Below, piece by piece: positions 17,301 to 29,609 of a stretch of 29,984 nucleotides of DNA. A model generated the notes under the pieces. It was not told where the DNA came from. It made no database searches and saw nothing but the letters and a program-made list of their open reading frames with translations. The DNA is from Nanobdellati archaeon (lineage in GTDB: Archaea; B1Sed10-29; JAGVWA01): contig JAGVWA010000010.1 in NCBI GenBank assembly GCA_018304505.1, forward strand, positions 1 through 29,984, written 5' to 3'. The position numbers were made by a program, and so were the translations under genes. Each line of letters starts with the position of its first letter. The stretch's first letter is position 1.

Positions 17301-19490
17301 ATGGGACGCAGGGAAGACATGGTAAAACGCGCACATGAGCTGATGTACTCCCCAGAGAACATCCGAAACATGGGCATCATTGCGCACATCGACCATGGCA
17401 AAACAACACTGTCAGACAACCTCATTAGCGGCGCTGGCCTCATGAGCAGCGAATTATCAGGATCTGCAAGGGAACTCGACAACTATGAACTCGAAGCACA
17501 ACGCGGAATAACAATATTCGCAGCAGCCATCTCCATGGTGTACAACCATGCCGACAAGGACATGCTCATCAACCTTATCGACACCCCGGGGCACGTCGAT
17601 TTTGGGGGCGAGGTAACCAGGGCCCTAAGGGCCATAGACGGCGCCATTGTTGTTACATGCGCCGTCGAAGGCTGCATGCCCCAAACAGAAACAGTTATAC
17701 GCGAGGCCCTAAAAGAGCGTGTCAGGCCAGTGCTGTTCATCAACAAGGTAGACAGGCTCATCAATGAGCTACAGCTCACGCCTGAGGCACTGCAGCAAAG
17801 GCTGCTGAAAATCATCGCCCAGGTTAACGGGTACATTGAAAAATACGCCGCGCCAGAATACAAACAGAAGTGGAAGGTCAGCGTGCAGAACGGCACAGTT
17901 GCCTTTGGAAGCGCGTTCCACAACTGGGCAATCTCAGCCCCATTCATGACCAAAACCGGAATCTCGTTCAAGGACATAATCGACTACTGCAACAACGAAA
18001 AGCAAAAAGAGCTGGCTGCAAAGATACCTGCCTACCAAGTAATACTTGACATGGCCGCCCAACACCTACCAAACCCAGTAACCGCACAGGCATACCGAAT
18101 TCCACACATTTGGCACGGCGACAAGGAATCAGACATCGGGAAATCAATGCTCAACTGCGACAAGGACGGAAAACCAGCACTAATAGTCACGAAAATAACC
18201 ACAGACCCGCAGGCTGGAGAAATCGCGCTGGCGCGCCTGTTCTCAGGCAAGATCAGCCGGGGCACCAAACTCGAGCTCCTAAATTCGAAAAGCACAGGCA
18301 CGGTACAACAGCTTGCGATCTACATGAGCGACCAACGAATTGCCATCGAAGACGCTGTTGCAGGAAACATCGTTGCCATCTCGGGCTTGAGGAACGCCAC
18401 GTCCGGAGAAACCGCATCAACAGAAACAATAGAGACATTCGAAAGCATAAAACACTACTCAGAGCCCGTCATTACGAAGAGCATTGAAGCCAAGTCACCA
18501 AAGGACTTGCCAAAATTGATCGAGGCCCTGAGGCAGATCGCAAAGCAGGACCCAACAGTTAGCGTGCAGATCAATGAAGAAACCGGAGAACATCTACTTA
18601 GCGGACAGGGTGAATTACATCTGGAGATTATCGAATACATGATACGGAACGACAAAAAAGTCGACATCGAGACCGGGCCTCCTATAATTGTTTACAGGGA
18701 AACGGTCAACGCAAAGAGCCAGGAAGTCGAAGGCAAGTCAGCCAACAAACACAACAAGTTCTACCTAACAGCAGAACCTCTGCCGGACGCGATTTACAAG
18801 GCCATCACCACAGGCGAGTTGCCTAACGGCAAGCCGAAGAACCCCAAGGACCTTGCAGAAAAACTCAGGGCGCTGGGCATGGAAAAAGACGAAGCAAAGA
18901 AGGTCTGGGACATCAAAAACAATTCCATGTTCCTGGACTCAACAAAGGGAATACAGCAACTGCATGAAGTTAAAGAGCTCGTGCTACAGGGATTTGAAGA
19001 AGCCATGTCCTCCGGGCCGCTGGCGCAGGAAAAGTGCGACAAGATCCTGATCAGGCTGCACGACGCAAAGCTCCACGAAGACGCGATACACCGTGGGCCT
19101 GCACAAACCATACCCGCAGTGAAGAACGGTATACTAGCCGCAATGCTTTACGCAAACGCGATACTGTTTGAGCCAAAACAAATGCTAATCATATCAGTTC
19201 CACAGGAATACATGGGCACGGTAACCACGTTCGTGCAAGGAAAACGCGGGCAGATCCAGGAGATAGACCAACAAGAGGATGCAATGACCATCATATCAAA
19301 GGTGCCGATAGCGGAAATGTTCGGGTCGTCTGCAGAAATCAGAAGCGCCACCCAAGGGAGGGCAATGTGGAATACAGAATACCTCGGCTATGAGCAACTA
19401 CCGCGGGACCTGCAGGAAACCATTATCCAACAAATAAGGTCAAGAAAGGGCCTTGGCACAAGGAAGGCACCGGAGGACTTTTTAGCTTAG
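17301..19490 (+). CDS. fusA: Elongation factor 2
   Basis: AHIDHGKTT, RGITI, DTPGHVDF, NKVD and the diphthamide loop HEDAIHRG. Confidence 0.99.
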   Translation: MGRREDMVKRAHELMYSPENIRNMGIIAHIDHGKTTLSDNLISGAGLMSSELSGSARELDNYELEAQRGITIFAAAISMVYNHADKDMLINLIDTPGHVDFGGEVTRALRAIDGAIVVTCAVEGCMPQTETVIREALKERVRPVLFINKVDRLINELQLTPEALQQRLLKIIAQVNGYIEKYAAPEYKQKWKVSVQNGTVAFGSAFHNWAISAPFMTKTGISFKDIIDYCNNEKQKELAAKIPAYQVILDMAAQHLPNPVTAQAYRIPHIWHGDKESDIGKSMLNCDKDGKPALIVTKITTDPQAGEIALARLFSGKISRGTKLELLNSKSTGTVQQLAIYMSDQRIAIEDAVAGNIVAISGLRNATSGETASTETIETFESIKHYSEPVITKSIEAKSPKDLPKLIEALRQIAKQDPTVSVQINEETGEHLLSGQGELHLEIIEYMIRNDKKVDIETGPPIIVYRETVNAKSQEVEGKSANKHNKFYLTAEPLPDAIYKAITTGELPNGKPKNPKDLAEKLRALGMEKDEAKKVWDIKNNSMFLDSTKGIQQLHEVKELVLQGFEEAMSSGPLAQEKCDKILIRLHDAKLHEDAIHRGPAQTIPAVKNGILAAMLYANAILFEPKQMLIISVPQEYMGTVTTFVQGKRGQIQEIDQQEDAMTIISKVPIAEMFGSSAEIRSATQGRAMWNTEYLGYEQLPRDLQETIIQQIRSRKGLGTRKAPEDFLA

Positions 19491-19595
19491 CTAATATAGT
19501 TAATTGCCAGAATATCGACTTTAACACAGTAACGTTAATAAACTAAAAAACAACACAATGAACACACGAATCAAATACACAAGGAGGCATGGAAT

Positions 19596-20864
19596 ATGGC
19601 AGAAAAACCGCACCTTAACCTGGTCTTCATTGGGCACGTCGACCACGGAAAATCAACATCCGTCGGAAGATTGCTTTATGAAACAGGTGCAATGAGCGAG
19701 GCAGAACTAAGAAAACTAAAGGAAACCGCTAACGCAGTTGGCAAGGCTACTTTCGAGTTCGCATTCGCAATGGATACCCTAAAAGAAGAGCGAGAACGAG
19801 GAGTCACAATAGACGTAGCGCACAAGGATTTCCGCACAGACAAGTACTACTTTACAATAATCGACGCGCCGGGACACAAGGACTTCGTCAAGAACATGAT
19901 CACGGGCACAAGCCAGAGTGACGCCGCTGTATTAGTGGTAGCAGCAACCGATAGCTGGAAAGAGCAAACAAAGGAGCACGCTTTCCTCGCCAGGACAATG
20001 GGCGTAAAACAGCTTATCGTATCAATAAACAAAATTGATGCTGTCGAATACAAACAAGAGCGATTCAACGAAGTCAAAAAGCAGATGGAGGACCTCTTAA
20101 AACCAATGGGCTGGAAGATCGACCAAATCCCCTTTATACCAGTATCAAGCCTCAAGGGGGACAACGTGGCAAAGAAATCAGAAAACCTACCATGGTATAC
20201 TGGCCCAACACTGCTTGAAGCACTAAACAACCTGATACTGCCAGAAAAACCGATAAACCAGCCCCTAAGGCTGCCGATCCAGGACGTTTACACCATTCCA
20301 GGAATCGGAACAGTGCCCGTAGGCAGGGTTGAAACAGGCACGGTAAAAGCAGGCGATAAGGTAATCATCATGCCTGGAAACGTTACCGGGGAAATCAAGA
20401 GCATCGAAATGCACCACCAACAGCTGCCGCAGGCCCAATCAGGAGACAACATCGGCTTCTCACTAAAAGGAGTGGACAAGAAATCAATAAAGAAAGGAGA
20501 TGTCATCGGGCACCCAGACAACCCACCAACAGTAGCCGAGGAATTCACCGCACAAATCGCAGTGCTGAACCACCCCACCGCAATCACTGTCGGATACCAG
20601 CCTGTACTGCACTGCCACACAGCGCAAGTAGCGTGCTCTGTTACGCAAATCATAGCAAAGCTTGACCCAAAAACAGGCGCAAAGGTTGAGAACGTCGAGT
20701 TCCTAAAGAACGGGGACGTGGCCTTCGTAAAGTTCAAGCCAACAAAGCTCATGGTTGTCGAAAAAGCCTCAGAGTTTTCACAACTCGGTAGATTCGCGAT
20801 CAGGGACATGGGCAGAACAGTAGCCGCAGGCCTTGTCACAGACGTCGTGCCAAAGAAACTCTAA
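19596..20864 (+). CDS. tuf: Elongation factor 1-alpha
   Basis: [26 protein letters not shown] and [16 protein letters not shown]. Confidence 0.99.
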
Positions 20865-20942
20865 AAACACAGCAGCACACAAAACCAGTATAATAAAAAC
20901 AAAACCATCTAAAATAAACAATTGGAAGAAGTGAAAGGTAAA

Positions 20943-21254
20943 ATGACCCAAACCGCAAGAATCAAGCTCGTAAGCCCAATGTACGAGCGCCTCGAGCAGG
21001 TCTCGAATGAAATCAGGGACATAGCACAAAAAACAGGTGCCAAGGTTAGCGGGCCGATTCCATTGCCCACCAAGAAATTGGAAATCCCTACCAGGAAAAG
21101 CCCCTGCGGAGATGGGTCAGAAACCTTCCACAAATTCCAAATGCGCATACACAAACGCCTAATCAACATAGCCGCAGACGACCGCACGCTCAGGCAGATA
21201 ATGCGCGTACAGGTCCCAGACTCAGTGCACATCGAAATCGAACTAAAAACCTAA
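20943..21254 (+). CDS. rps10: 30S ribosomal protein S10 (uS10)
   Basis: GPIPLPTK, RKSPCGDG and MRIHKRLI. ATG 20943 is preferred over TTG 20922. Confidence 0.97.
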   Translation: MTQTARIKLVSPMYERLEQVSNEIRDIAQKTGAKVSGPIPLPTKKLEIPTRKSPCGDGSETFHKFQMRIHKRLINIAADDRTLRQIMRVQVPDSVHIEIELKT

Positions 21255-21291
21255 CCCTACTATTTTGGCGCTAACGGGGTGAACAAAAACA

Positions 21292-21510
21292 ATGTGGGAA
21301 GTACAATTAACACTAGAGCAATTCGCAGATTTCCAAGTGACACAACGAGAAAGACACGTCACGCCACTGCCCCCCATAAAAACAACAGACGCAGACATTG
21401 TAAGATACGCAGACGGGAACAGGGTCCTAATAACAGACCAAGGCGGGGGCACGACATACACTCATTTTAAGCCCGGAGAACAGATTCCCATACCTCAAAT
21501 AGGCCAATGA
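21292..21510 (+). CDS. Small hypothetical protein, MW-start #1 (72 aa)
   Basis: GGGGTGA SD upstream; begins MWEVQ. Confidence 0.6.
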   Translation: MWEVQLTLEQFADFQVTQRERHVTPLPPIKTTDADIVRYADGNRVLITDQGGGTTYTHFKPGEQIPIPQIGQ

Positions 21511-21545
21511 ACTGAGCCACAATGGAAAAAATCACATTTTTACAA

Positions 21546-21558
21546 AAAGCTTAAATAT
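21546..21558 (+). promoter_or_regulatory. BRE/TATA promoter
   Basis: AAAGCTTAAATAT about 30 nt before ATG 21589. Confidence 0.7.
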
Positions 21559-21588
21559 ACCCTCTGGGACATATTATACTGAAGCTAT

Positions 21589-21855
21589 ATGTGGAGCACA
21601 AGCACAGATACTCAAGATGCGCAAAAACCAAGATTTGACTCATTTGAAGAAATTGACCAATGGTTTGACACCGAAAGGAAAGCAGTCGAGCTCGCGGCAA
21701 ATATGAAAATTCTAGACATAAATGTTCGTACCCAAAAAGCAATACATGGCCTAGAAGCAGAACGGATTGAGCTAAGGCGTGGCGTGCTAGAACATCGCGA
21801 CGGTCATGCCGACCAAAGCGTACACGACGCAGAATCTCCATCAATCTACAGCTAA
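21589..21855 (+). CDS. Small hypothetical protein, MW-start #2 (88 aa)
   Basis: Has its own promoter; begins MWSTST; the middle looks helical. Confidence 0.7.
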   Translation: MWSTSTDTQDAQKPRFDSFEEIDQWFDTERKAVELAANMKILDINVRTQKAIHGLEAERIELRRGVLEHRDGHADQSVHDAESPSIYS

Positions 21856-21883
21856 GCCCAAACAGCGTGCGGGGGCACAAACC

Positions 21884-21897
21884 AAAGCTTTAAATAT
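21884..21897 (+). promoter_or_regulatory. BRE/TATA promoter
   Basis: AAAGCTTTAAATAT, near-identical to 21546-21558, followed by a GGTGA SD and ATG 21931. Confidence 0.7.
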
Positions 21898-21930
21898 CAC
21901 AATATTGCATAATTACTTGGTGATTACATC

Positions 21931-22119
21931 ATGTGGGAAACTAATAGAGAACACGACGCAGTGCTGCCTGCAGAAGATTCAAGACCAACATACGGCGCAC
22001 CGAAAGTTCGACACGAAATTGTCGACCACCCAATAGACGACCTTGACCACTTGCCAAATCCATTGGACCGCGAGCCAGTAGACCCATTCAGGCCGCCAAC
22101 AAGACCCATGGATTACTAA
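21931..22119 (+). CDS. Small hypothetical protein, MW-start #3 (62 aa, Pro/Asp-rich)
   Basis: Promoter plus GGTGA SD; begins MWETNRE. Confidence 0.7.
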   Translation: MWETNREHDAVLPAEDSRPTYGAPKVRHEIVDHPIDDLDHLPNPLDREPVDPFRPPTRPMDY

Positions 22120-22208
22120 AACAGCTACTAAGCACGCCGAAAAAAACGGCACCTTGGCAAACCCAATAAACTTTTTATAGTTCAGTCTACACAAACATAC
22201 AGAGCAAC

Positions 22209-22721
22209 ATGCTAGTCTATTTGTCACCTTCCGAGATAAAAATTTTCAATGCACCATGGCCAAGGATAAGACACTGCCTTAGAATGTACTTTGGCAAACC
22301 ATTCAATAACTCAACCTTCGGGAAAGAATACTGGAAATACCCAAACCTTGACTATGATACAAAAGTCTCAAGATTCCGCGGCACAAAATTAGAAATCACA
22401 GAACCATCATCCACCCAAGAAATACGAATTGAGACCCCCAAAATCACCAGGAAATTCGGCTCGGTTGGCCCAGACATAATAATAACAGGCAAAATAGACT
22501 ACCCCCTATTTTTGAAATCGCTAAACACTGCAGGGTACGGAGTAAAACAAAAAGACTTGACGAAAAAAACCAAGGCGCTCTACTTCGAGGATATTCGCGT
22601 GGGTTTTGCAATAGATAAAAAAAACAAATTCAAAAAAATTCAACTAGACAGTAATATACCCTACGAACTAAAGATACCACATAACATAAAAGATAAAATA
22701 AAGCTATGTGAAGATCAATGA
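22209..22721 (+). CDS. Hypothetical protein (170 aa, basic)
   Basis: TTTTTATA about 30 nt upstream; ATGA overlap with the methyltransferase. Confidence 0.75.
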   Translation: MLVYLSPSEIKIFNAPWPRIRHCLRMYFGKPFNNSTFGKEYWKYPNLDYDTKVSRFRGTKLEITEPSSTQEIRIETPKITRKFGSVGPDIIITGKIDYPLFLKSLNTAGYGVKQKDLTKKTKALYFEDIRVGFAIDKKNKFKKIQLDSNIPYELKIPHNIKDKIKLCEDQ

Positions 22722-23380
22722 CCTGGAACGACAAGTACTTCGAAAAATGGAAGCAAGCCAGGAAACACAGGGCCTACAACGAATACCTCTGGACAATACA
22801 ATTGGCAGAAGAAGCTAATTCCAGGGGTTTGAAGAAAGCACTAGACATCGGCTGCGCAGTTGGCTACCAGAGCGTGTGGCTCGCAAAGCAAGGCTTCAAC
22901 GTCACAGGCCTCGACATCTCAGAGAAGGCGCTCAATGAGGCCAAGGAACTAGCAGAAAAGGAAAATGCCACAGTAACTTTTGTAAACGGCGACGCGGCAC
23001 AAATGCCAGTTCCTAACAACGAATTTGAAATGGTGCTGTGCAGCGGCGTAATTCAATACAACACCACCAACCGCATTAAACAAATCATCAGTGAAATACA
23101 CAGGGTCATGAAACCAAAGGGCATCATGATCATGCACTTCCCGATCCACAGCAAGGAATTCAACATCGACTTCCCGAACCCGGGAAAGGAAGTAGAGCCG
23201 CGCACGTACTTAAAAAATGATGGCTATGCAAAGGGGCTTCATTACCACCTTTTCACAAAAGACGAAGTCGACAATTTACTGAGTGATTTCAACATCATCC
23301 AGAAAATCACGTTCACGACAGACAAAAAACGCAAGCCTCCAGTGCACTACTGGGTGCGCATCATCGCGGAAAAAGGGTAA
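22718..23380 (+). CDS. Class I SAM-dependent methyltransferase
   Basis: Motif I LDIGCAVG, VTGLDIS, GDA and HRVMKPKG. Confidence 0.92.
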   Translation: MTWNDKYFEKWKQARKHRAYNEYLWTIQLAEEANSRGLKKALDIGCAVGYQSVWLAKQGFNVTGLDISEKALNEAKELAEKENATVTFVNGDAAQMPVPNNEFEMVLCSGVIQYNTTNRIKQIISEIHRVMKPKGIMIMHFPIHSKEFNIDFPNPGKEVEPRTYLKNDGYAKGLHYHLFTKDEVDNLLSDFNIIQKITFTTDKKRKPPVHYWVRIIAEKG

Positions 23381-23386
23381 AAGACT

Positions 23387-23806
23387 ATGAAGAAATACGA
23401 ACTGCTCGAAGGAATTACCGCAGATGTCGGCATCAAAGCCACGGCAGACACATTCCCAGAATTACTGGAGATGTGCGCGCAGGCGATGTTCGAAATCATG
23501 TACAAGACCGACAACGTCGACATGATTGAGGAGAAAACAGTGGAAATCGACGTACGCAACAACAACGAAGAAACACTACACGCGTTCCTCGGCGAGCTCC
23601 TGTTTATATTCCAGACCGAGTACATCATATTTAAGGACTTCAAAGTACAAATCCAAAATGGCAAGGTAACGTGCGTTGCGAAGGGCGAAAAAGCCAAGGA
23701 AGGAAAACACGAATACAACATCGAGATAAAAGCAGTAACATACCACGAATTAAAAGTAGAAAAAACAGACAGGGGATACACGGCCACGGTGATATTCGAT
23801 ATCTGA
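23387..23806 (+). CDS. Archease (RtcB cofactor)
   Basis: TADVG, EIKAVTYH and C-terminal VIFDI. Confidence 0.95.
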   Translation: MKKYELLEGITADVGIKATADTFPELLEMCAQAMFEIMYKTDNVDMIEEKTVEIDVRNNNEETLHAFLGELLFIFQTEYIIFKDFKVQIQNGKVTCVAKGEKAKEGKHEYNIEIKAVTYHELKVEKTDRGYTATVIFDI

Positions 23807-23843
23807 ATGCGTGGTGCAAGAGGCATAACAGAGGTAGTGTAAG

Positions 23844-24272
23844 ATGAGGGGACGGCCAGCAGTAACAGACATAATACTAGAATTCGAAGGCAAACTGGCC
23901 TTGATAAAACGAGGCACTGAGCCATACAAAGGTACCTACGCGCTGCCCGGCGGCTATGTAAACGATGGAGAGACCATTGAACAGGCAGCAATTCGTGAAA
24001 TGAAAGAAGAAACCGGGCTTGACATTAAAGTAAAATACATCCTTGGCGTTTACTCAAACCCAGAACGGGACCGCAGAAAAAACATCTCAACAGTCTTCAT
24101 CTGCGAAAAAACCGGGGGCGAACCAAAAGCAGGAAGCGACGCCAAGGAAATCCACACAATGCCCCTAAGCAAAATAGACTTCAGCCAGATAGCTTTTGAT
24201 CATGACCAAATAATCCAAGACTATATAAAGTGGAAAAAAGAAAAAGGAACCTACTGGAGCACTAAGCAATAG
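23844..24272 (+). CDS. Nudix hydrolase (ADP-ribose pyrophosphatase-like)
   Basis: Nudix box GGYVNDGETIEQAAIREMKEETGL, AGSDA and AFDH. Confidence 0.95.
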   Translation: MRGRPAVTDIILEFEGKLALIKRGTEPYKGTYALPGGYVNDGETIEQAAIREMKEETGLDIKVKYILGVYSNPERDRRKNISTVFICEKTGGEPKAGSDAKEIHTMPLSKIDFSQIAFDHDQIIQDYIKWKKEKGTYWSTKQ

Positions 24273-24284
24273 CGAGATGATTAA

Positions 24285-24725
24285 ATGGAAGCCCACTTTG
24301 TACAGAAAAACAACACAATACTGAAATGCGAGAAAACCGACAGCGGCTACCTCGTTCAAGCCAACTTGGAAGAAGCTGTGCAGTTCCTGAACTGCTTGTA
24401 CACCAAGCCCAACCTTAGCGAAGTGAAGGTCAACGGCAGAAAAAAGCGCTTGCTGTTCAAGGACAAGGACATTACGCGAAGCGAAGAAAGCGAAATCGAC
24501 GACGGCGAACTCAGGGTCAAGGTGAAATACAAACCCTACGAGCTGATCCTGCCGGAAGACGAGTTCATGCCAGACTACGTTTCCATCAAGGGCAACTTAA
24601 CAGAACAGGACATCAAACGAGGTTTGCAATTGACGTTCGGCGCATCATTTGATGAAGTATTACCCGAAACCTTCAGGATGGTACCCTCAACCACAATGCT
24701 AACAACCCGCGGGGATGAACAATGA
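24285..24725 (+). CDS. Hypothetical protein (146 aa)
   Basis: Clean ORF with an ATGA overlap with rtcB. Confidence 0.8.
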   Translation: MEAHFVQKNNTILKCEKTDSGYLVQANLEEAVQFLNCLYTKPNLSEVKVNGRKKRLLFKDKDITRSEESEIDDGELRVKVKYKPYELILPEDEFMPDYVSIKGNLTEQDIKRGLQLTFGASFDEVLPETFRMVPSTTMLTTRGDEQ

Positions 24726-26149
24726 AACAAATAAGCGAAGGCATATTCGAATTCCCCGCTGAGGGGGGCATGGAAGTGCCTGCACGAGTATACATGACAA
24801 AGAAGATGCTCGAAGAGGCGGATGAAACCGCGATACAACAGGCCAGAAACGTGGCCCATTTGCCGGGCATACTGAAACACTCAATCATTTTGCCCGATGG
24901 TCATTTTGGCTATGGGTTCCCAATCGGCGGCGTCGCAGCCTTTGACGCAAAAACGGGAATAGTAAGCCCCGGGGGAATTGGTTTCGACATTAATTGCGGT
25001 GTAAGAACTTTACGAACATCGCTAACGCATAGCGATATCAAAGACAAACTCGACGAATTAATCAGAACGCTATTCAAAAATGTTCCCTCTGGTGTTGGTT
25101 CTGAAGGCCGTATCAAACTCAACGACGATGAACTAAAGGAAGTTTCGCACCGAGGTGTCGACTGGGCTATCGAAAACGGCTATGGGGAAAAGAAGGACCC
25201 GGAGACGATCGAGGAAAATGGAAAAATTGCTGGTGCGGATTTCTCAAAGATATCAAGCAGGGCCAGGGCCAGGGGAAGACCGCAGCTTGGAACCCTTGGT
25301 TCTGGAAACCACTTCCTGGAAGTGCAGCGCGTAGAGTCAATTTACGATGAAGAAACTGCAAAGAAGTTCGGCATCACCGACTTAGACCAGGTAATGGTTA
25401 TGATACACTGCGGCTCGCGGGGCTTCGGCCACCAGATTTGCACCGATTACCTAGAGGTGTTCAACAACGCCTTCAGCAAGTGGAAAACCGACTTGCCGGA
25501 CAGGCAACTGATTTATGCCCCGCTGGAGTCACAGGAAGCTCAAGACTACTTGGGGGCGATGAACTGCGCAATCAACTTCGCCTTTACTAATCGACAGCTC
25601 ATTACGCACTGGGTCCGCGAGTCGTTCCAAACGGTATTTGGAAAAGACCAAGATGCGCTGGGCATGGACATTGTTTACGACGTTTGTCACAACATCGCAA
25701 AATTTGAAGACCACAAAATCGATGGCGAAACAAGGCGCGTGTGTGTACACAGAAAAGGCGCCACGCGGGCGTTCCCCGCAGGCCGGCCGGAGATTCCAGA
25801 AAAGTACCGCGACGTGGGTCAGCCCGTGTTGATTCCGGGAGACATGGGCCGCTTCAGCTACGTCTTAGTTGGAACGCAAAAAGCCCTGGATGAAACCTGG
25901 GGCAGCAGTGCTCATGGAGCTGGCCGGGCGCACTCGAGAAGCCACATGCTGAAAACGCTACGCGGCTCTGATGTAAAACAGATTCTTGAAGCCAAGGGCG
26001 AGGTCATCTACGCAAAATCCCCAAAAGTGCTAGCAGAAGAAGCACCCGAGGCGTACAAGAACGTTGACGACGTCATCGAAGCCACTGAGCTGGCAGGCAT
26101 TTCCAAGAAGGTCATACGACTAAAGCCGCTGGGCGTAGCAAAGGGTTAA
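24722..26149 (+). CDS. rtcB: RNA-splicing ligase RtcB
   Basis: DGHFGYGFPIGG, DINCG, GNHFLE, HCGSRG, HNIA, HRKGAT and HGAGR. No intein. Confidence 0.98.
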   Translation: MKQISEGIFEFPAEGGMEVPARVYMTKKMLEEADETAIQQARNVAHLPGILKHSIILPDGHFGYGFPIGGVAAFDAKTGIVSPGGIGFDINCGVRTLRTSLTHSDIKDKLDELIRTLFKNVPSGVGSEGRIKLNDDELKEVSHRGVDWAIENGYGEKKDPETIEENGKIAGADFSKISSRARARGRPQLGTLGSGNHFLEVQRVESIYDEETAKKFGITDLDQVMVMIHCGSRGFGHQICTDYLEVFNNAFSKWKTDLPDRQLIYAPLESQEAQDYLGAMNCAINFAFTNRQLITHWVRESFQTVFGKDQDALGMDIVYDVCHNIAKFEDHKIDGETRRVCVHRKGATRAFPAGRPEIPEKYRDVGQPVLIPGDMGRFSYVLVGTQKALDETWGSSAHGAGRAHSRSHMLKTLRGSDVKQILEAKGEVIYAKSPKVLAEEAPEAYKNVDDVIEATELAGISKKVIRLKPLGVAKG

Positions 26150-26184
26150 ATAATTTGCATGCTCCAATATATCCAGGTGTTACT

Positions 26185-26349
26185 ATCTGGAGTACTGACA
26201 ACCGTGAAGTAAGTTTACCGCGGAAAACCCTTCCAAAAAAACCACCAGCAGACCCAGGAGAGCCGTCCATAGAATCATTCGCAACAGAACTAGACGAATT
26301 CCTCGTTGACTTGAAGGAAGACCTGATGAGGCTAAGCAGGCAACGATAA
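26185..26349 (+). CDS. Small hypothetical protein, (I/M)W-start #4; start uncertain (ATC 26185 or TTG 26155)
   Basis: AGGTG SD lies 5 nt before ATC-TGG. IWSTDNRE resembles MWST/MWETNRE, and the C-half aligns with 26374..26589. Confidence 0.55.
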   Translation: MWSTDNREVSLPRKTLPKKPPADPGEPSIESFATELDEFLVDLKEDLMRLSRQR

Positions 26350-26373
26350 AACTAACGCAACACAGGGTTCGAC

Positions 26374-26589
26374 ATGTGGCACAACATTCCTGACGCCCGA
26401 CGCGCTCCGAAACCACAAGACCAGACACGCATCGAGTGGGACGAATTCAAAATTATGGATCCCGAAATGTCGAGCTTCGCAGAACAGATGCAGGACTTCC
26501 CGAACTCGCTCATGGAAGACATCCTCAGAAGAGTTAACCAGCCGCCAACAACGGTTGTTGACAAAAGGCCAGGAGCAGGGGCGCGATAG
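26374..26589 (+). CDS. Small hypothetical protein, MW-start #5 (71 aa)
   Basis: Begins MWHNIP; ungapped similarity to the preceding ORF. Confidence 0.7.
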   Translation: MWHNIPDARRAPKPQDQTRIEWDEFKIMDPEMSSFAEQMQDFPNSLMEDILRRVNQPPTTVVDKRPGAGAR

Positions 26590-26625
26590 CTATGCGGGAA
26601 AACAAACCCACGCACAAACCAGCAC

Positions 26626-26637
26626 AAAGCTTATAAA
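26626..26637 (+). promoter_or_regulatory. BRE/TATA promoter of the rpl3 operon
   Basis: AAAGCTTATAAA. Confidence 0.65.
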
Positions 26638-26679
26638 GGGCATTTCATCCAAGATAGCTACAGTATTTTTTTAAATACG

Positions 26680-26759
26680 AAATTTACGGGTCTAGTACGC
26701 CCAACTGTCCCAAAAAGACAGGGCGCGCGATGAAGACGCATGTACAAGATTCCAAATTT
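26680..26759 (+). promoter_or_regulatory. Candidate structured 5' leader of the rpl3 operon
   Basis: An outer stem GGGTCTAGTAC/GTACAAGATTCC encloses hairpins GCC..CTGTC/GACAGGGC and GCG-ATGAAGA-CGC. Confidence 0.5.
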
Positions 26760-26773
26760 TACCGTGAACAAAA

Positions 26774-27763
26774 ATGGTAAGAATAAGTTGGCCAAGGCGA
26801 GGCAGCCTTGCGTTCTACCCACGAAAGAAAGCCAAAAGGCAACACCCCCAGTTACGCAGCGTTAAAAAAACAGGTGAAGCAAAGCCGGGCTACTTCCTGG
26901 GATACAAGGCAGGAATGAGCCACGTCCTGGCTGTTGACACGTACGAGAAGTCACCTAGCTACGGCCAAACCATATCCCTTCCAGTCACATTCATTGAGTG
27001 CCCGGAAAACAGGGTAATCGGCATCAAGGCTTACACCCAGAGGCCTGAAGGCACACTCAATTTCACGACCCTCTACACAGAAAAACAGGACAAGGAAATC
27101 ACGAGAAAGACAAAGGCCGCAAAAAACAGCAAACCTGACGAAGTGAGAAAGAAGATCCAGGACAACCTCCCAAAGATACAGGAAATCAGGCTCATCGTGG
27201 AAACGCAGCCAAAGAAAATCATGCTCAAGAAGACACCGGAAATAATCGAGGTGCCATTCACGACCGAGAAAGTGGAAGACCAATGGGCCAAAGCCCAGGA
27301 ACTGCTCGGCAAGGAAATCAAGGTCTCTGAGGTGCTGCAAGAAGGCACATATCTTGACACGACATCAATAACAACTGGCCGCGGAACCGAAGGTCCGCTA
27401 AGACGATTCGGCCTAAAGAGGCAGAGGCACAAGGCGAAAGGGCACATAAGAAACCCAGGGTCTATAGGGGCATGGCACCCGGCTCGCGTTTTATGGACAG
27501 TCGCGATGACTGGGCAAAAGGGATATCAGCGACGCACCGAGTTAAATAAGCGCCTGCTCAAGATATCAGACAAACCAGAAGACGCAAACCCCGTTTCTGG
27601 CTTCAGAAGCTATGGAACGCTGAAAACAGACTACCTAATAATCAAAGGCTCAATAGGCGGGCCAAAGAAACGCCTAATAGCACTCAGGCCAGCGCTGAGG
27701 GAAAAACATGCAACCCCAATGCCTGAAATAAAATCAATATCCACAATAGCACAAAACAGATGA
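26774..27763 (+). CDS. rpl3: 50S ribosomal protein L3
   Basis: PRRGSLAFYPRK, GYKAGMSH, GSIGAWHPARV and RTELNKR. Confidence 0.98.
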   Translation: MVRISWPRRGSLAFYPRKKAKRQHPQLRSVKKTGEAKPGYFLGYKAGMSHVLAVDTYEKSPSYGQTISLPVTFIECPENRVIGIKAYTQRPEGTLNFTTLYTEKQDKEITRKTKAAKNSKPDEVRKKIQDNLPKIQEIRLIVETQPKKIMLKKTPEIIEVPFTTEKVEDQWAKAQELLGKEIKVSEVLQEGTYLDTTSITTGRGTEGPLRRFGLKRQRHKAKGHIRNPGSIGAWHPARVLWTVAMTGQKGYQRRTELNKRLLKISDKPEDANPVSGFRSYGTLKTDYLIIKGSIGGPKKRLIALRPALREKHATPMPEIKSISTIAQNR

Positions 27764-28569
27764 TGCGAATGAAGGCCAAGGTACTAGCAATCGATGGGAC
27801 CAAGAGCAAGGAGATCTCCCTGCCAGACATATTCAACGAAGACTTTAGGCCCGACTTAATTCGCAGGGCAAGCCTCGCGCTGCGCTCCGGCGCGTATCAG
27901 GCGCAGGGCGTAGACCCAGACGCCGGCTTCAGGACAAGCGCAGCGTTCTTCGGAAGGCGAAAAAAGGTATTCAGGACAACAAACAACCGAGGCATATCCC
28001 GGCTGCCACGGGTGAAACTCTCTGGTGGGGGCCTTGGCGAGGTACGAAGGGTCCCGCAATCCAAAGGAGGCAGGACTGCACACCCACCGAAGATCGACAA
28101 GATCCTTGTTGAAAAAATCAACGACAAGGAAAGAAAAAGAGCAATAAGGAGCGCTATTGCCGCGACAATAAACCACGAGCTGGTGATAAAACGTGGCCAC
28201 AAAATAGGGCACCTGAAGGAATTGCCGCTGGTGCTGGAAGACAAGTTCAATGACCTGAAAAAAACAAAAGACGTACTCGAAGTGCTAAAAAAGCTCCAAC
28301 TAGAAGCAGAACTTGCGAGGGGGGCAACGGTAACAATAAGGGCAGGCCGCGGAACAATGAGGGGGCGGCCATACAGAAGAAAACGCGCAGGCCTCATCGT
28401 GACTGACAAGGAATCGGGGCTCTTCAAGGCCCTGAAAAACATTCCCGGCTTCGAGATCAGGGTTGCAAAGGACCTAAACGCAGACATACTAGCCCCTGGT
28501 GGAGACGCAGGCAGGCTAACGATATACACCGAGTCCTCGATATCCCAACTAGAAAAAATGTTCCGATAA
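27760..28569 (+). CDS. rpl4: 50S ribosomal protein L4
   Basis: RPDLIRRA, GGRTAHPP, RAGRGTMRGR and LAPGGDAGRLT. The start may be 27769. Confidence 0.98.
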   Translation: MMRMKAKVLAIDGTKSKEISLPDIFNEDFRPDLIRRASLALRSGAYQAQGVDPDAGFRTSAAFFGRRKKVFRTTNNRGISRLPRVKLSGGGLGEVRRVPQSKGGRTAHPPKIDKILVEKINDKERKRAIRSAIAATINHELVIKRGHKIGHLKELPLVLEDKFNDLKKTKDVLEVLKKLQLEAELARGATVTIRAGRGTMRGRPYRRKRAGLIVTDKESGLFKALKNIPGFEIRVAKDLNADILAPGGDAGRLTIYTESSISQLEKMFR

Positions 28570-28617
28570 TTCCGATGATATAATGTAATGTTCACAGTAA
28601 CGTTCAGATGATGCACA

Positions 28618-28863
28618 ATGATCCAATACCCACTGCTAACCGAAAAAGCGATAGGCGCAATAGAAAAACAGAATCAGCTAGTGTTCATTGTTGATGACAA
28701 AATGACAAAGGACCAGATAAAAAAGGACATCGAGGCGCTGTACAGCGTCAAGGTACAGCGAATAAACACCCTGAATTCAATGAGGGGAAAGAAAAAAGCC
28801 TTTGTCAAGCTACGCAAGGAAAGCAACGCAGGGGACCTCGCAACCAAACTGAAGATAATGTAA
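28618..28863 (+). CDS. rpl23: 50S ribosomal protein L23
   Basis: PLLTEKA, LVFIVD and KKAFVKL. Confidence 0.97.
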   Translation: MIQYPLLTEKAIGAIEKQNQLVFIVDDKMTKDQIKKDIEALYSVKVQRINTLNSMRGKKKAFVKLRKESNAGDLATKLKIM

Positions 28864-28898
28864 TTAATGTAATGAAATAAATTGACTGAAGTGATTGA

Positions 28899-29609
28899 AT
28901 GGGAAGACCACTAATATCGCAACGCCGAGGAAAGGGCTCGCCTAGCTTCAAGGCGCCATCACACCACTTCAAGGCAAGGTCAAGATACGGAGACACAGTT
29001 GCAGATAGAAAAATCGCGCAGGTGACAAAATTCATCGATGACCCATCAAGAACCGCAGTCCTCACACAACTTACGTATGCAGACCAAACAACAACCATGA
29101 TACCAGCAGCAGAGGGCCTCAAGATCAATGACCTAATAGAAGAAGGCGCAACAGCAGGGCATGGAATCGGGCACATCCTTCCCCTGAGCAGCATACCCGA
29201 GGGCACACCAATATTCAACATAGAGCTAAGAGCGGGCGACGGAGGAAAGCTCGTAAGATCCTCAGGATCAGCGGCATACCTTGTAAGCAAGGAACAAAAC
29301 AAGGCATCTGTAAAGCTCCCGTCTGGAAAGCTCAAATACTTCCCGCTGAACGTAAGGGCCACACTTGGCATTGTCGCCGGCGGCGGACGAGTAGAAAAAC
29401 CCCTCCTGAAAGCAGGAAATGCCCATTATAAACACAAGGCCAAAGGGCAGTGGTACCCAACAGTCCGGGGCGTGAAAATGAACCCTGTCGAACACCCATT
29501 CGGTGGAACACAGCACCACGGCTCTAAAACAAAGAAGGGCAAGGGCGGATCCCCGGGACAACATGTCGGCTCATTCGGGGCAAGCAGAACCGGAAGAAAG
29601 AAACGCTAA
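28899..29609 (+). CDS. rpl2: 50S ribosomal protein L2
   Basis: QRRGKG, VKLPSG and VRGVKMNPVEHPFGG. Confidence 0.98.
   Translation: MGRPLISQRRGKGSPSFKAPSHHFKARSRYGDTVADRKIAQVTKFIDDPSRTAVLTQLTYADQTTTMIPAAEGLKINDLIEEGATAGHGIGHILPLSSIPEGTPIFNIELRAGDGGKLVRSSGSAAYLVSKEQNKASVKLPSGKLKYFPLNVRATLGIVAGGGRVEKPLLKAGNAHYKHKAKGQWYPTVRGVKMNPVEHPFGGTQHHGSKTKKGKGGSPGQHVGSFGASRTGRKKR

Follow-up and report, generated by a model that had tools for sequence, protein, structure and literature searches.

The internal proteins of T-even phages are unrelated small proteins that share a capsid targeting sequence, a short N-terminal address tag, and repertoires of effectors and secretion substrates marked by a tiny motif are also known among the WXG100/Esx proteins, the mycobacterial PE/PPE proteins, and the Y/F/WxC and RxLR effectors of filamentous pathogens. 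In eukaryotes, methionine (Met) followed by a hydrophobic residue is known as an N-degron, whether acetylated or free. Here we describe a class of about 80 small proteins that begin with Met-tryptophan (Met-Trp, or MW) in the genome of a Nanobdellati archaeon (assembly GCA_018304505.1; 917 kb in 21 contigs, rated 92.8% complete). Five small open reading frames (ORFs) of this kind, numbered 1 to 5 along the plus strand, lie around the archease and RtcB RNA ligase genes of contig JAGVWA010000010.1, which was analyzed in its entirety (29,984 nucleotides (nt); hereafter the window). They are real, lineage-specific protein genes of the genome-wide MW class. We infer, with a probability of roughly 0.45, that selection maintains Met-Trp as an N-terminal tag at the protein level, recognized by a putative reader.

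The MW class resembles the T-even internal proteins in comprising small, fast-evolving, unrelated and clustered proteins with a few common N-terminal residues, which imply a common reader. It differs from them in that its genes are chromosomal, lie amid housekeeping genes on 16 contigs and have no phage context, and in that the tag is essentially two residues long, with no protease or particle known. A cluster of phage or viral mini-proteins was considered and rejected, as none of 85 MW ORFs belonged to a PHROGs family and no mobile-element or viral hallmark (integrase, capsid, terminase) occurred among 134 neighbors of MW genes. Like the effector repertoires, the MW proteins make up a large, lineage-specific share of the genes (about 8% here), are small and acidic, occur in tandem groups, and are diverse save for a minimal Trp-containing motif. 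Unlike in those repertoires, the motif occupies residues 1-2 rather than a helical hairpin or a place behind a signal peptide, none of 86 MW candidates matched a WXG100 or PE/PPE family in Pfam, the organism is an archaeon, and no secretion machinery is linked to the genes. Literature searches turned up nothing on Met-Trp starts of archaeal small proteins.

The frequency of MW starts was assessed across the genome. Genes were scored for codon usage with a model trained on 372 long ORFs, scores above 0.15 being taken as likely coding, and a greedy non-overlapping selection yielded 1026 genes. The background was set by the hexamer ATGTGG, which accounts for 390 of the 31,450 ATG triplets (1.24%). 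Among raw ORFs read from the first ATG, MW starts numbered 33 of 2651 at 30-60 amino acids (aa), 63 of 1226 at 60-100 aa, 32 of 718 at 100-200 aa, and 3 of 534 at 200 aa or more. Likely-coding ORFs gave 46 of 219, 24 of 316, and 3 of 466 for the last three size classes. In the non-overlapping set, MW stood at the start of 48 of 182 genes in the 60-100 aa range and 27 of 198 in the 100-150 aa range; above 150 aa the counts were 1/121, 1/202, and 2/278 (4/601 in total). Trp was the most frequent second residue in the 60-100 aa class. Small MW-starting ORFs are thus enriched far beyond chance, with 75 among the 380 genes of 60-150 aa (binomial p = 1e-64 at an expected frequency of 0.0124).

The 81 MW genes below 200 aa were distributed over 16 of the 21 contigs, 22.8 kb in total, mostly between housekeeping genes. 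Their products, about 80 proteins or 8% of the gene set, ranged from 41 to 153 aa with a median of 91. MW genes were neighbors of one another in 22 adjacent pairs, compared to 6.2 expected and a maximum of 14 in 2000 permutations. An earlier note on this DNA, made from the window alone, had proposed that an N-terminal Trp serves as a signal in these small ORFs; that idea survives and gains strength, since it now applies to a class marked by N-terminal Met-Trp that spans the genome.

As that note had described, four plus-strand ORFs in the window start with ATG TGG (at 21292, 21589, 21931, and 26374), and a fifth frame, ORF 4, reads IWSTDNRE from an ATC TGG at 26185 that lies 5 nt behind a well-spaced GGTG. 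ORF 4 thus carries ATC where the MW class has ATG as start; it is the only hydrophilic ATC-TGG ORF in the genome with a Shine-Dalgarno (SD) sequence, and its in-frame TTG lies six bases past the RtcB stop. All five ORFs span 54-88 aa and have a single Trp, at codon 2, a position from which Trp is absent in every core gene of the block. MW starts account for 4 of the 11 genes in the block, compared to the 1.24% background (binomial p = 7e-6). Codon-usage scores of 0.28-0.32, against 0.31-0.66 for neighboring core genes (RtcB, 0.31), together with SD or TATA signals, bear out the view that the ORFs are genuine genes.

Start signals were compared between MW genes and other genes. An SD sequence was present in 51 of the 81 MW genes and exceeded that of other genes in strength (G at 41-48% from -13 to -9), and 17 of the 81 had a TATA box only and appeared leaderless-like. 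Within the window, the GGTG sequences proposed for ORFs 1, 3, and 4 were found 10, 8, and 5 nt before the start, respectively. ORF 2 appears leaderless-like because a TATA-like box lies about 30 nt upstream and there is no SD. The promoters of ORFs 2 and 3 had been called near-identical, and both do carry AAAGCTT(T)AAATAT; however, this box is the general consensus of the organism for the B recognition element (BRE) and TATA box. The sequence AAGCTTTAAATA, with up to 2 mismatches and within 70 nt upstream, was found in 80 genes genome-wide (65 of 945 non-MW genes and 15 of 81 MW genes).

MW starts of small genes appear restricted to this lineage. When the same ORF method was applied to 329 kb of the nearest genome (G013), MW starts numbered 0/64, 0/127, and 1/193 (0/191 for small genes). 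At 88 other archaeal RtcB loci (about 660 kb) they numbered 10/750 and 3/547, and 11/397 for long ORFs, the latter being conserved MW starts of RFC-like and RtcB orthologues. The pattern of an SD followed by ATGTGG occurred 32 times in this genome against 7 for a reversed control; across 30 relatives from its order or class, the summed counts were 208 and 181. No family- or genus-level relative was present among the genomes compared, and a metagenome scan with RtcB returned one identical fragment and otherwise 80 loci, none of them above 57% identity. In several archaea (loci L049, L053, L066-L069, and L076) an RtcB neighbor of about 316 aa starts with a conserved MWVEKYRP and looks like the RFC small subunit, so a conserved Met-Trp start is possible in a core protein.

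Apart from this start, the MW proteins have little in common. The 86 candidates of a looser selection fell into 79 unrelated BLAST clusters, and 82 of them lacked a Pfam family, as did all five window ORFs at E <= 0.001. The remaining four were RpoP, an AAA ATPase, a DsbA-like protein, and a DUF655 fragment whose start is probably an internal Met. ORFs 2, 3, and 5 matched only themselves among 5.8 billion proteins. An exhaustive HMMER search with ORF 1 returned itself and five weak matches (E from 3.5e-8 to 8e-4) to Ig-like, Big_2, SprB, FG-GAP, and CHU_C-type repeat proteins; these were summed matches to different families and were set aside as beta-strand look-alikes. ESM Atlas feature scores for ORF 1 (0.90, to a Colicin_D cluster) and ORF 5 (0.80) fell within the chance range stated for that tool and were likewise discounted.

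The earlier note had regarded the five ORFs as one diversified family. This can be demonstrated only for ORFs 4 and 5, which aligned by BLASTP at E = 2e-5 over 28 residues and, judged by sequence, are tandem paralogues. ORFs 2 and 5 aligned at E = 0.034 and ORFs 3 and 4 at E = 5.7, and phmmer searches of about 3800 ORFs, with the five window proteins as queries, gave nothing below E = 0.05 except ORFs 4 and 5. The short motifs on which the family had been based are present, namely W-(S/E)-T in ORFs 2, 3, and 4 and P-x-x-x-S-F in ORFs 2, 4, and 5; the NRE..LP of ORFs 3 and 4 is readable but gave no significant BLAST alignment. In its extended form, P-x-hydrophobic-x-S-F-x6-F, the second motif occurred in the genome only in ORFs 2, 4, and 5, the three from which it was defined. 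It may be a helix cap, as it coincides with the start of a predicted helix in ORF 2.

The composition of the MW proteins was distinctive. The median isoelectric point (pI) was 4.94 and the grand average of hydropathy (GRAVY) -0.63; Arg and Lys made up 8.1% and 4.7% of residues, compared to 4.3-5.0% and 7.4-9.0% in other genes, and Asp and Glu were more abundant than elsewhere. The five window proteins match this profile (pI 4.75-5.23, more Arg than Lys). GC content at third codon positions was lower in MW genes (0.51 versus 0.54-0.56) even though total GC was higher.

All eight MW paralogue pairs retained MW at 28-43% identity, with synonymous sites saturated, and in all eight the proportion of synonymous differences (pS, 0.61-0.97) exceeded that of nonsynonymous differences (pN, 0.41-0.54). 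One pair has GTG TGG in one member and ATG TGG in the other. Four paralogues form an island on contig C15 (L029 201-3987; G000:C15:27219-31005). For this family, AlphaFold2 predicted a five-stranded sheet plus a helical hairpin, with a predicted local distance difference test score (pLDDT) of 81.8 and a predicted TM-score of 0.73. Foldseek searches of PDB and BFVD with this model gave nothing at E <= 0.001, and the best VIA-align result (Z 5.7) was confined to the helical hairpin.

The small ORFs had also been described as largely disordered, which holds only in part. AlphaFold2 modeled ORF 2 (pLDDT 81.2) with a 58-residue helix at residues 19-76 behind an 18-residue tail, a low-confidence and apparently flexible segment that bears Met-Trp (mean pLDDT 62 over the first 10 residues). 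ESM Atlas models of ORFs 1 and 5 were poor (pLDDT 0.54 and 0.50).

How might two residues mark so many unrelated proteins? Methionine aminopeptidase is expected to be blocked when the second residue is bulky, and Met is therefore presumably retained in the MW proteins. The Met-Trp tip, often on a flexible tail, would then be recognized by one putative lineage-specific reader, and a common reader would give otherwise unrelated proteins a shared fate. For such a small archaeon of a host-dependent type, these proteins would most likely be sorted, or passed on to a partner cell or structure; controlled turnover would be an alternative. More tentatively, Met-Trp could be a new two-residue archaeal address label on an effector-like repertoire, with a reader that either brings the encoded proteins, from about 8% of the genes, to the host cell or its interface or sets the time of their degradation; this wider claim we regard as possible but doubtful.

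Several observations favor the tag. Met-Trp occurs in both SD-led and leaderless-like genes. GTG TGG starts exist, ORF 4 keeps TGG behind ATC, and the diverged paralogues all keep Trp at position 2 (W2). In the model of ORF 2, Met-Trp would sit on a flexible tail.

Eukaryotic N-termini offer a biochemical likeness, in that a retained Met-Trp belongs to a recognized type of N-terminus, one open to reading by enzymes and receptors. MW proteins have, by definition, the Met-Trp sequence of NatC substrates, with retention and acetylation of their Met being putative. Unlike here, Met-Trp is rare in eukaryotes and is no marker of a gene class. To our knowledge, neither a NatC-like specificity nor an N-degron pathway for Met-Trp has been described in archaea. 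An N-terminus of the NatC type keeps its initiator Met and is acetylated by a dedicated N-acetyltransferase. According to PMC4692089, the substrates have Ile, Leu, Phe, or Trp after Met, and Trp is the second residue in 1.3% of human proteins.

Several points weigh against the tag. It rests on sequence analyses and predicted models, the latter numbering two (ORF 2 and the four-member island family), and its reader, modification, and destination are all putative. The evidence for conservation of W2 comes from paralogues, as the collections searched contained no relative closer than order level. Since neither Met nor Trp has more than one codon, sequence alone does not separate a protein tag from an RNA signal AUGUGG. 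Residues 3-5 are weakly informative (0.45-0.63 bits, compared to a 99.9% null of 0.37), being polar, then T/I/N/V, then Q/T/I; this signal is compatible with both readings, and it could also be explained by the A-rich codons usual near starts. Finally, the N-termini have no feature of a known archaeal export signal, with a mean net charge of -0.73 over residues 3-10 and a GRAVY of -0.63 for the class. Sec and Tat signals have a positive n-region and then a hydrophobic h-region of 10 or more residues, with a twin Arg for Tat; such a signal peptide was rejected on these values and on the polar or acidic N-termini of all five window proteins.

If the tag is real, it picks out at once a lineage-specific toolkit of an uncultured, symbiotic-type archaeon, about 80 proteins that homology searches otherwise miss, and gives a handle on the machinery that reads them. 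By labeling the orphan proteins, it would also open to testing the question of how such small archaea interact with their hosts.

The same data can be read at the RNA level, with the hexamer AUGUGG, rather than the dipeptide, as a translational control element shared by about 80 mRNAs. In one version, the Trp codon that enters the A-site first would tie clearance of initiation to charged tRNA-Trp, and a Trp-auxotrophic symbiont would express the set only while its host supplied Trp; in another, the hexamer would be a site for an RNA-binding factor. An AUG-anchored signal would look identical to a Met-Trp start, and some features of the genome fit an RNA-level or Trp-supply signal. TrpA and IGPS were not found in this 92.8%-complete genome, although each of 14 control genomes yielded both. 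The only tRNA-Trp(CCA) gene has a 64-nt intron. This gene (G000:C3, 106320-106457) lies about 160 bases from an MW gene on the minus strand (106003-106158). Codon 4 begins with A in 59% of MW genes compared to 39% of others, and non-ATG starts look rarer in ORFs with Trp at position 2 (6/36 versus 94/249), although this baseline is too noisy for start-codon usage to decide between protein and RNA.

Other features speak against an RNA element. The hexamer would stand at the very 5' end of the leaderless-like mRNAs (17/81) and internally in the SD-led ones (51/81), versions with GTG TGG and ATC TGG exist, and long, highly expressed genes lack the hexamer start (3/466). Trp content past position 2 was ordinary (0.84% versus 0.8-0.9%). 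No extra RNA structure was seen at MW starts, as minimum free energies did not differ (-8.1 versus -7.5 kcal/mol), and a higher pairing of UGUGG there is expected from its G/U content. Internal ATGTGG was depleted in core genes (28 in frame versus 37.3 +/- 4.5 expected, and 31 versus 63 +/- 7.9 in frame +1), an ambiguous result that is inseparable from codon-pair bias.

In a trp attenuator, trp genes are preceded by a very short ORF that carries tandem Trp codons, and by alternative hairpins and a terminator downstream of that ORF. As in trp leader peptides, the early Trp codon of a small ORF could make expression depend on the supply of Trp, and Trp synthesis is apparently absent here. Unlike them, the MW genes have a single Trp codon at position 2, encode folded products of 41-153 aa, exist in about 80 copies, and have neither a downstream trp gene nor a terminator/antiterminator pair; the classical features of Trp sensing are thus missing. 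An attenuator in the window itself was rejected, since ORFs of 54-88 aa with one Trp are no such leaders, no Rfam match was found between 20800 and 26900 at E <= 0.1, and no TrpA or IGPS gene was found. We consider the RNA-level explanation unlikely overall; if right, it would mean a new kind of amino-acid-gated regulon.

One ancestral small protein might instead have expanded and diverged beyond recognition, with W2 as a structural core or anchor residue and neither reader nor tag. Size, charge, and composition are indeed similar across the class, the 22 adjacent pairs form tandem clusters, and MW is retained in six small paralogue groups and, besides these, in ORFs 4 and 5 and the island family. 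T/I/V are frequent at positions 4-6, which would suit an N-terminal strand, and the island-family model has a strand at residues 5-7. However, the 79 BLAST clusters from 86 ORFs and the near-empty phmmer searches speak against this, and the predicted architectures differ: ORF 2 is predicted to form a long helix behind its tail, the island family a sheet and hairpin, and ORF 3 is very hydrophilic, with many Pro residues. Nor is a flexible tail a likely site for a core residue at position 2. A single superfamily therefore seems to us rather improbable, and we return to the protein-level tag as the favored reading.

The enclosed enzymes had been suggested as partners, the peptides being regulators, substrates, or docking partners of RtcB, archease, the methyltransferase, or the Nudix hydrolase. 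Five members do flank the block, and maturation of an intron-bearing archaeal tRNA-Trp needs a splicing ligase. Nevertheless, only four members (five with ORF 4) of about 81 are found here, and the other 76 or so lie beside unrelated housekeeping genes on 15 other contigs, the very scatter that the earlier note had named as refuting the link though not the family. Of 185 selected neighbors of MW genes, 134 were scanned (41 lay beyond the retrieved sequence, 8 were window genes, and 2 were long MW-start genes), and 71 of these had Pfam families such as prefoldin, FEN1, ribosomal proteins, aminoacyl-tRNA synthetases, PolB, FtsZ, Cdc6, and SepF, plus a few toxin-antitoxin types. By tblastn, relatives of the five ORFs were present at none of the 88 other archaeal RtcB loci, compared to archease at 65; linkage to rtcB in related genomes was thus not borne out, and in G013 the block occurs without these five. 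ORFs 1, 2, and 3 have promoter or SD signals of their own. The small ORFs have no detectable tie to the RNA-ligase genes and do not qualify as RtcB accessories; a functional link is largely refuted and very improbable, and the ORFs should be annotated as members of the genome-wide class.

That the ORFs are not genes and their MW starts a product of chance or assembly can be dismissed as extremely improbable, for despite the lack of homologues, the binomial p of 1e-64, the SD/TATA signals and codon-usage scores, pS above pN in every paralogue pair, the confident fold predictions, the location on the same contigs as core genes, and four sequencing runs that agree here letter for letter all speak against it. 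In the listed pieces of contigs from these four DNA sequencing runs, compared with positions 19000-29000, no letter differed across the MW region, so there is no polymorphism to feed a dN/dS test.

Table 1. Small ORFs, their start signals, and flanking genes in the window
Feature	Position	Strand	Remarks
Ribosomal protein S10 (context)	20943..21254	+	Left edge of the ancestral block; 77% identical to the RtcB-adjoining S10 of G013
GGTG Shine-Dalgarno of ORF 1	21278..21281	+	GGTG-N10-ATGTGG pattern match
MW ORF 1, MWEVQ...	21292..21510	+	72 aa; acidic orphan; codon score 0.32; pI 5.07
BRE/TATA-like box AAAGCTTAAATATA	21546..21559	+	~30 nt before ORF 2 start; leaderless-like, no SD
MW ORF 2, MWSTS...	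21589..21855	+	88 aa; predicted flexible 18-residue N-tail, then one long helix; pI 4.93
BRE/TATA-like box AAAGCTTTAAATAT	21884..21897	+	Before ORF 3; generic consensus
GGTG Shine-Dalgarno of ORF 3	21919..21922	+	8 nt before start; pattern match
MW ORF 3, MWETN...	21931..22119	+	62 aa; Pro/Asp-rich; pI 4.75; GRAVY -1.15
Archease (context)	23387..23806	+	Pfam PF01951, E = 3e-37; adjoins RtcB in 65/88 other loci
RtcB RNA ligase (context)	24722..26149	+	Pfam PF01139, E = 3e-175; 60% identical to G013 copy
ORF 4, ...GVTIWSTDNRE	26155..26349	+	Frame open from TTG 26155; ATC TGG at 26185-26190
GGTG of ORF 4	26176..26179	+	5 nt before ATC
MW ORF 5, MWHNI...	26374..26589	+	71 aa; pI 5.23
Ribosomal protein L3 (context)	26774..27763	+	Right edge of the ancestral block

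The gene content of the window is archaeal, with EF-2, EF-1alpha, and S10 upstream of the small-ORF region and L3, L4, L23, L2, and S19 downstream. From S10 to L3 the order is ORFs 1-3, a 170-aa orphan, an S-adenosylmethionine (SAM) methyltransferase, archease, a Nudix hydrolase, a 146-aa orphan, RtcB, and ORFs 4 and 5. In G013 the order is EF-1alpha, S10, a 447-base gap, archease, RtcB, a 170-base gap, L3, and L4 onward. Because G013 has the same block without the MW ORFs (window 20943-27763; G013 locus L116 4345-8172), the S10-archease-RtcB-L3 arrangement is, from this comparison, ancestral, and the small ORFs are lineage-specific fillers of the S10-archease and RtcB-L3 gaps. No flanking repeats marking an insertion were found around the small ORFs, only short repeats at chance level.

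The block in this genome also gained the SAM methyltransferase, the Nudix hydrolase, and the two orphans. Neither the orphans nor the methyltransferase had a relative at the 88 other RtcB loci, and the Nudix hydrolase had one at a single locus. The stop of the 170-aa orphan shares four bases with the methyltransferase start (22718-22721), as does that of the 146-aa orphan with the RtcB start (24722-24725). These overlaps suggest that each orphan is translationally coupled to its enzyme.

Among the relatives, RtcB of four genomes (G025:C48, G021:C43, G006:C1, and G023:C4) matched in two pieces within a single open frame (983-1016 aa), a pattern that would fit a large insertion near residue 90, possibly an intein. 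The RtcB match of another relative (G001:C29:5698-7086) contains one in-frame TAG.

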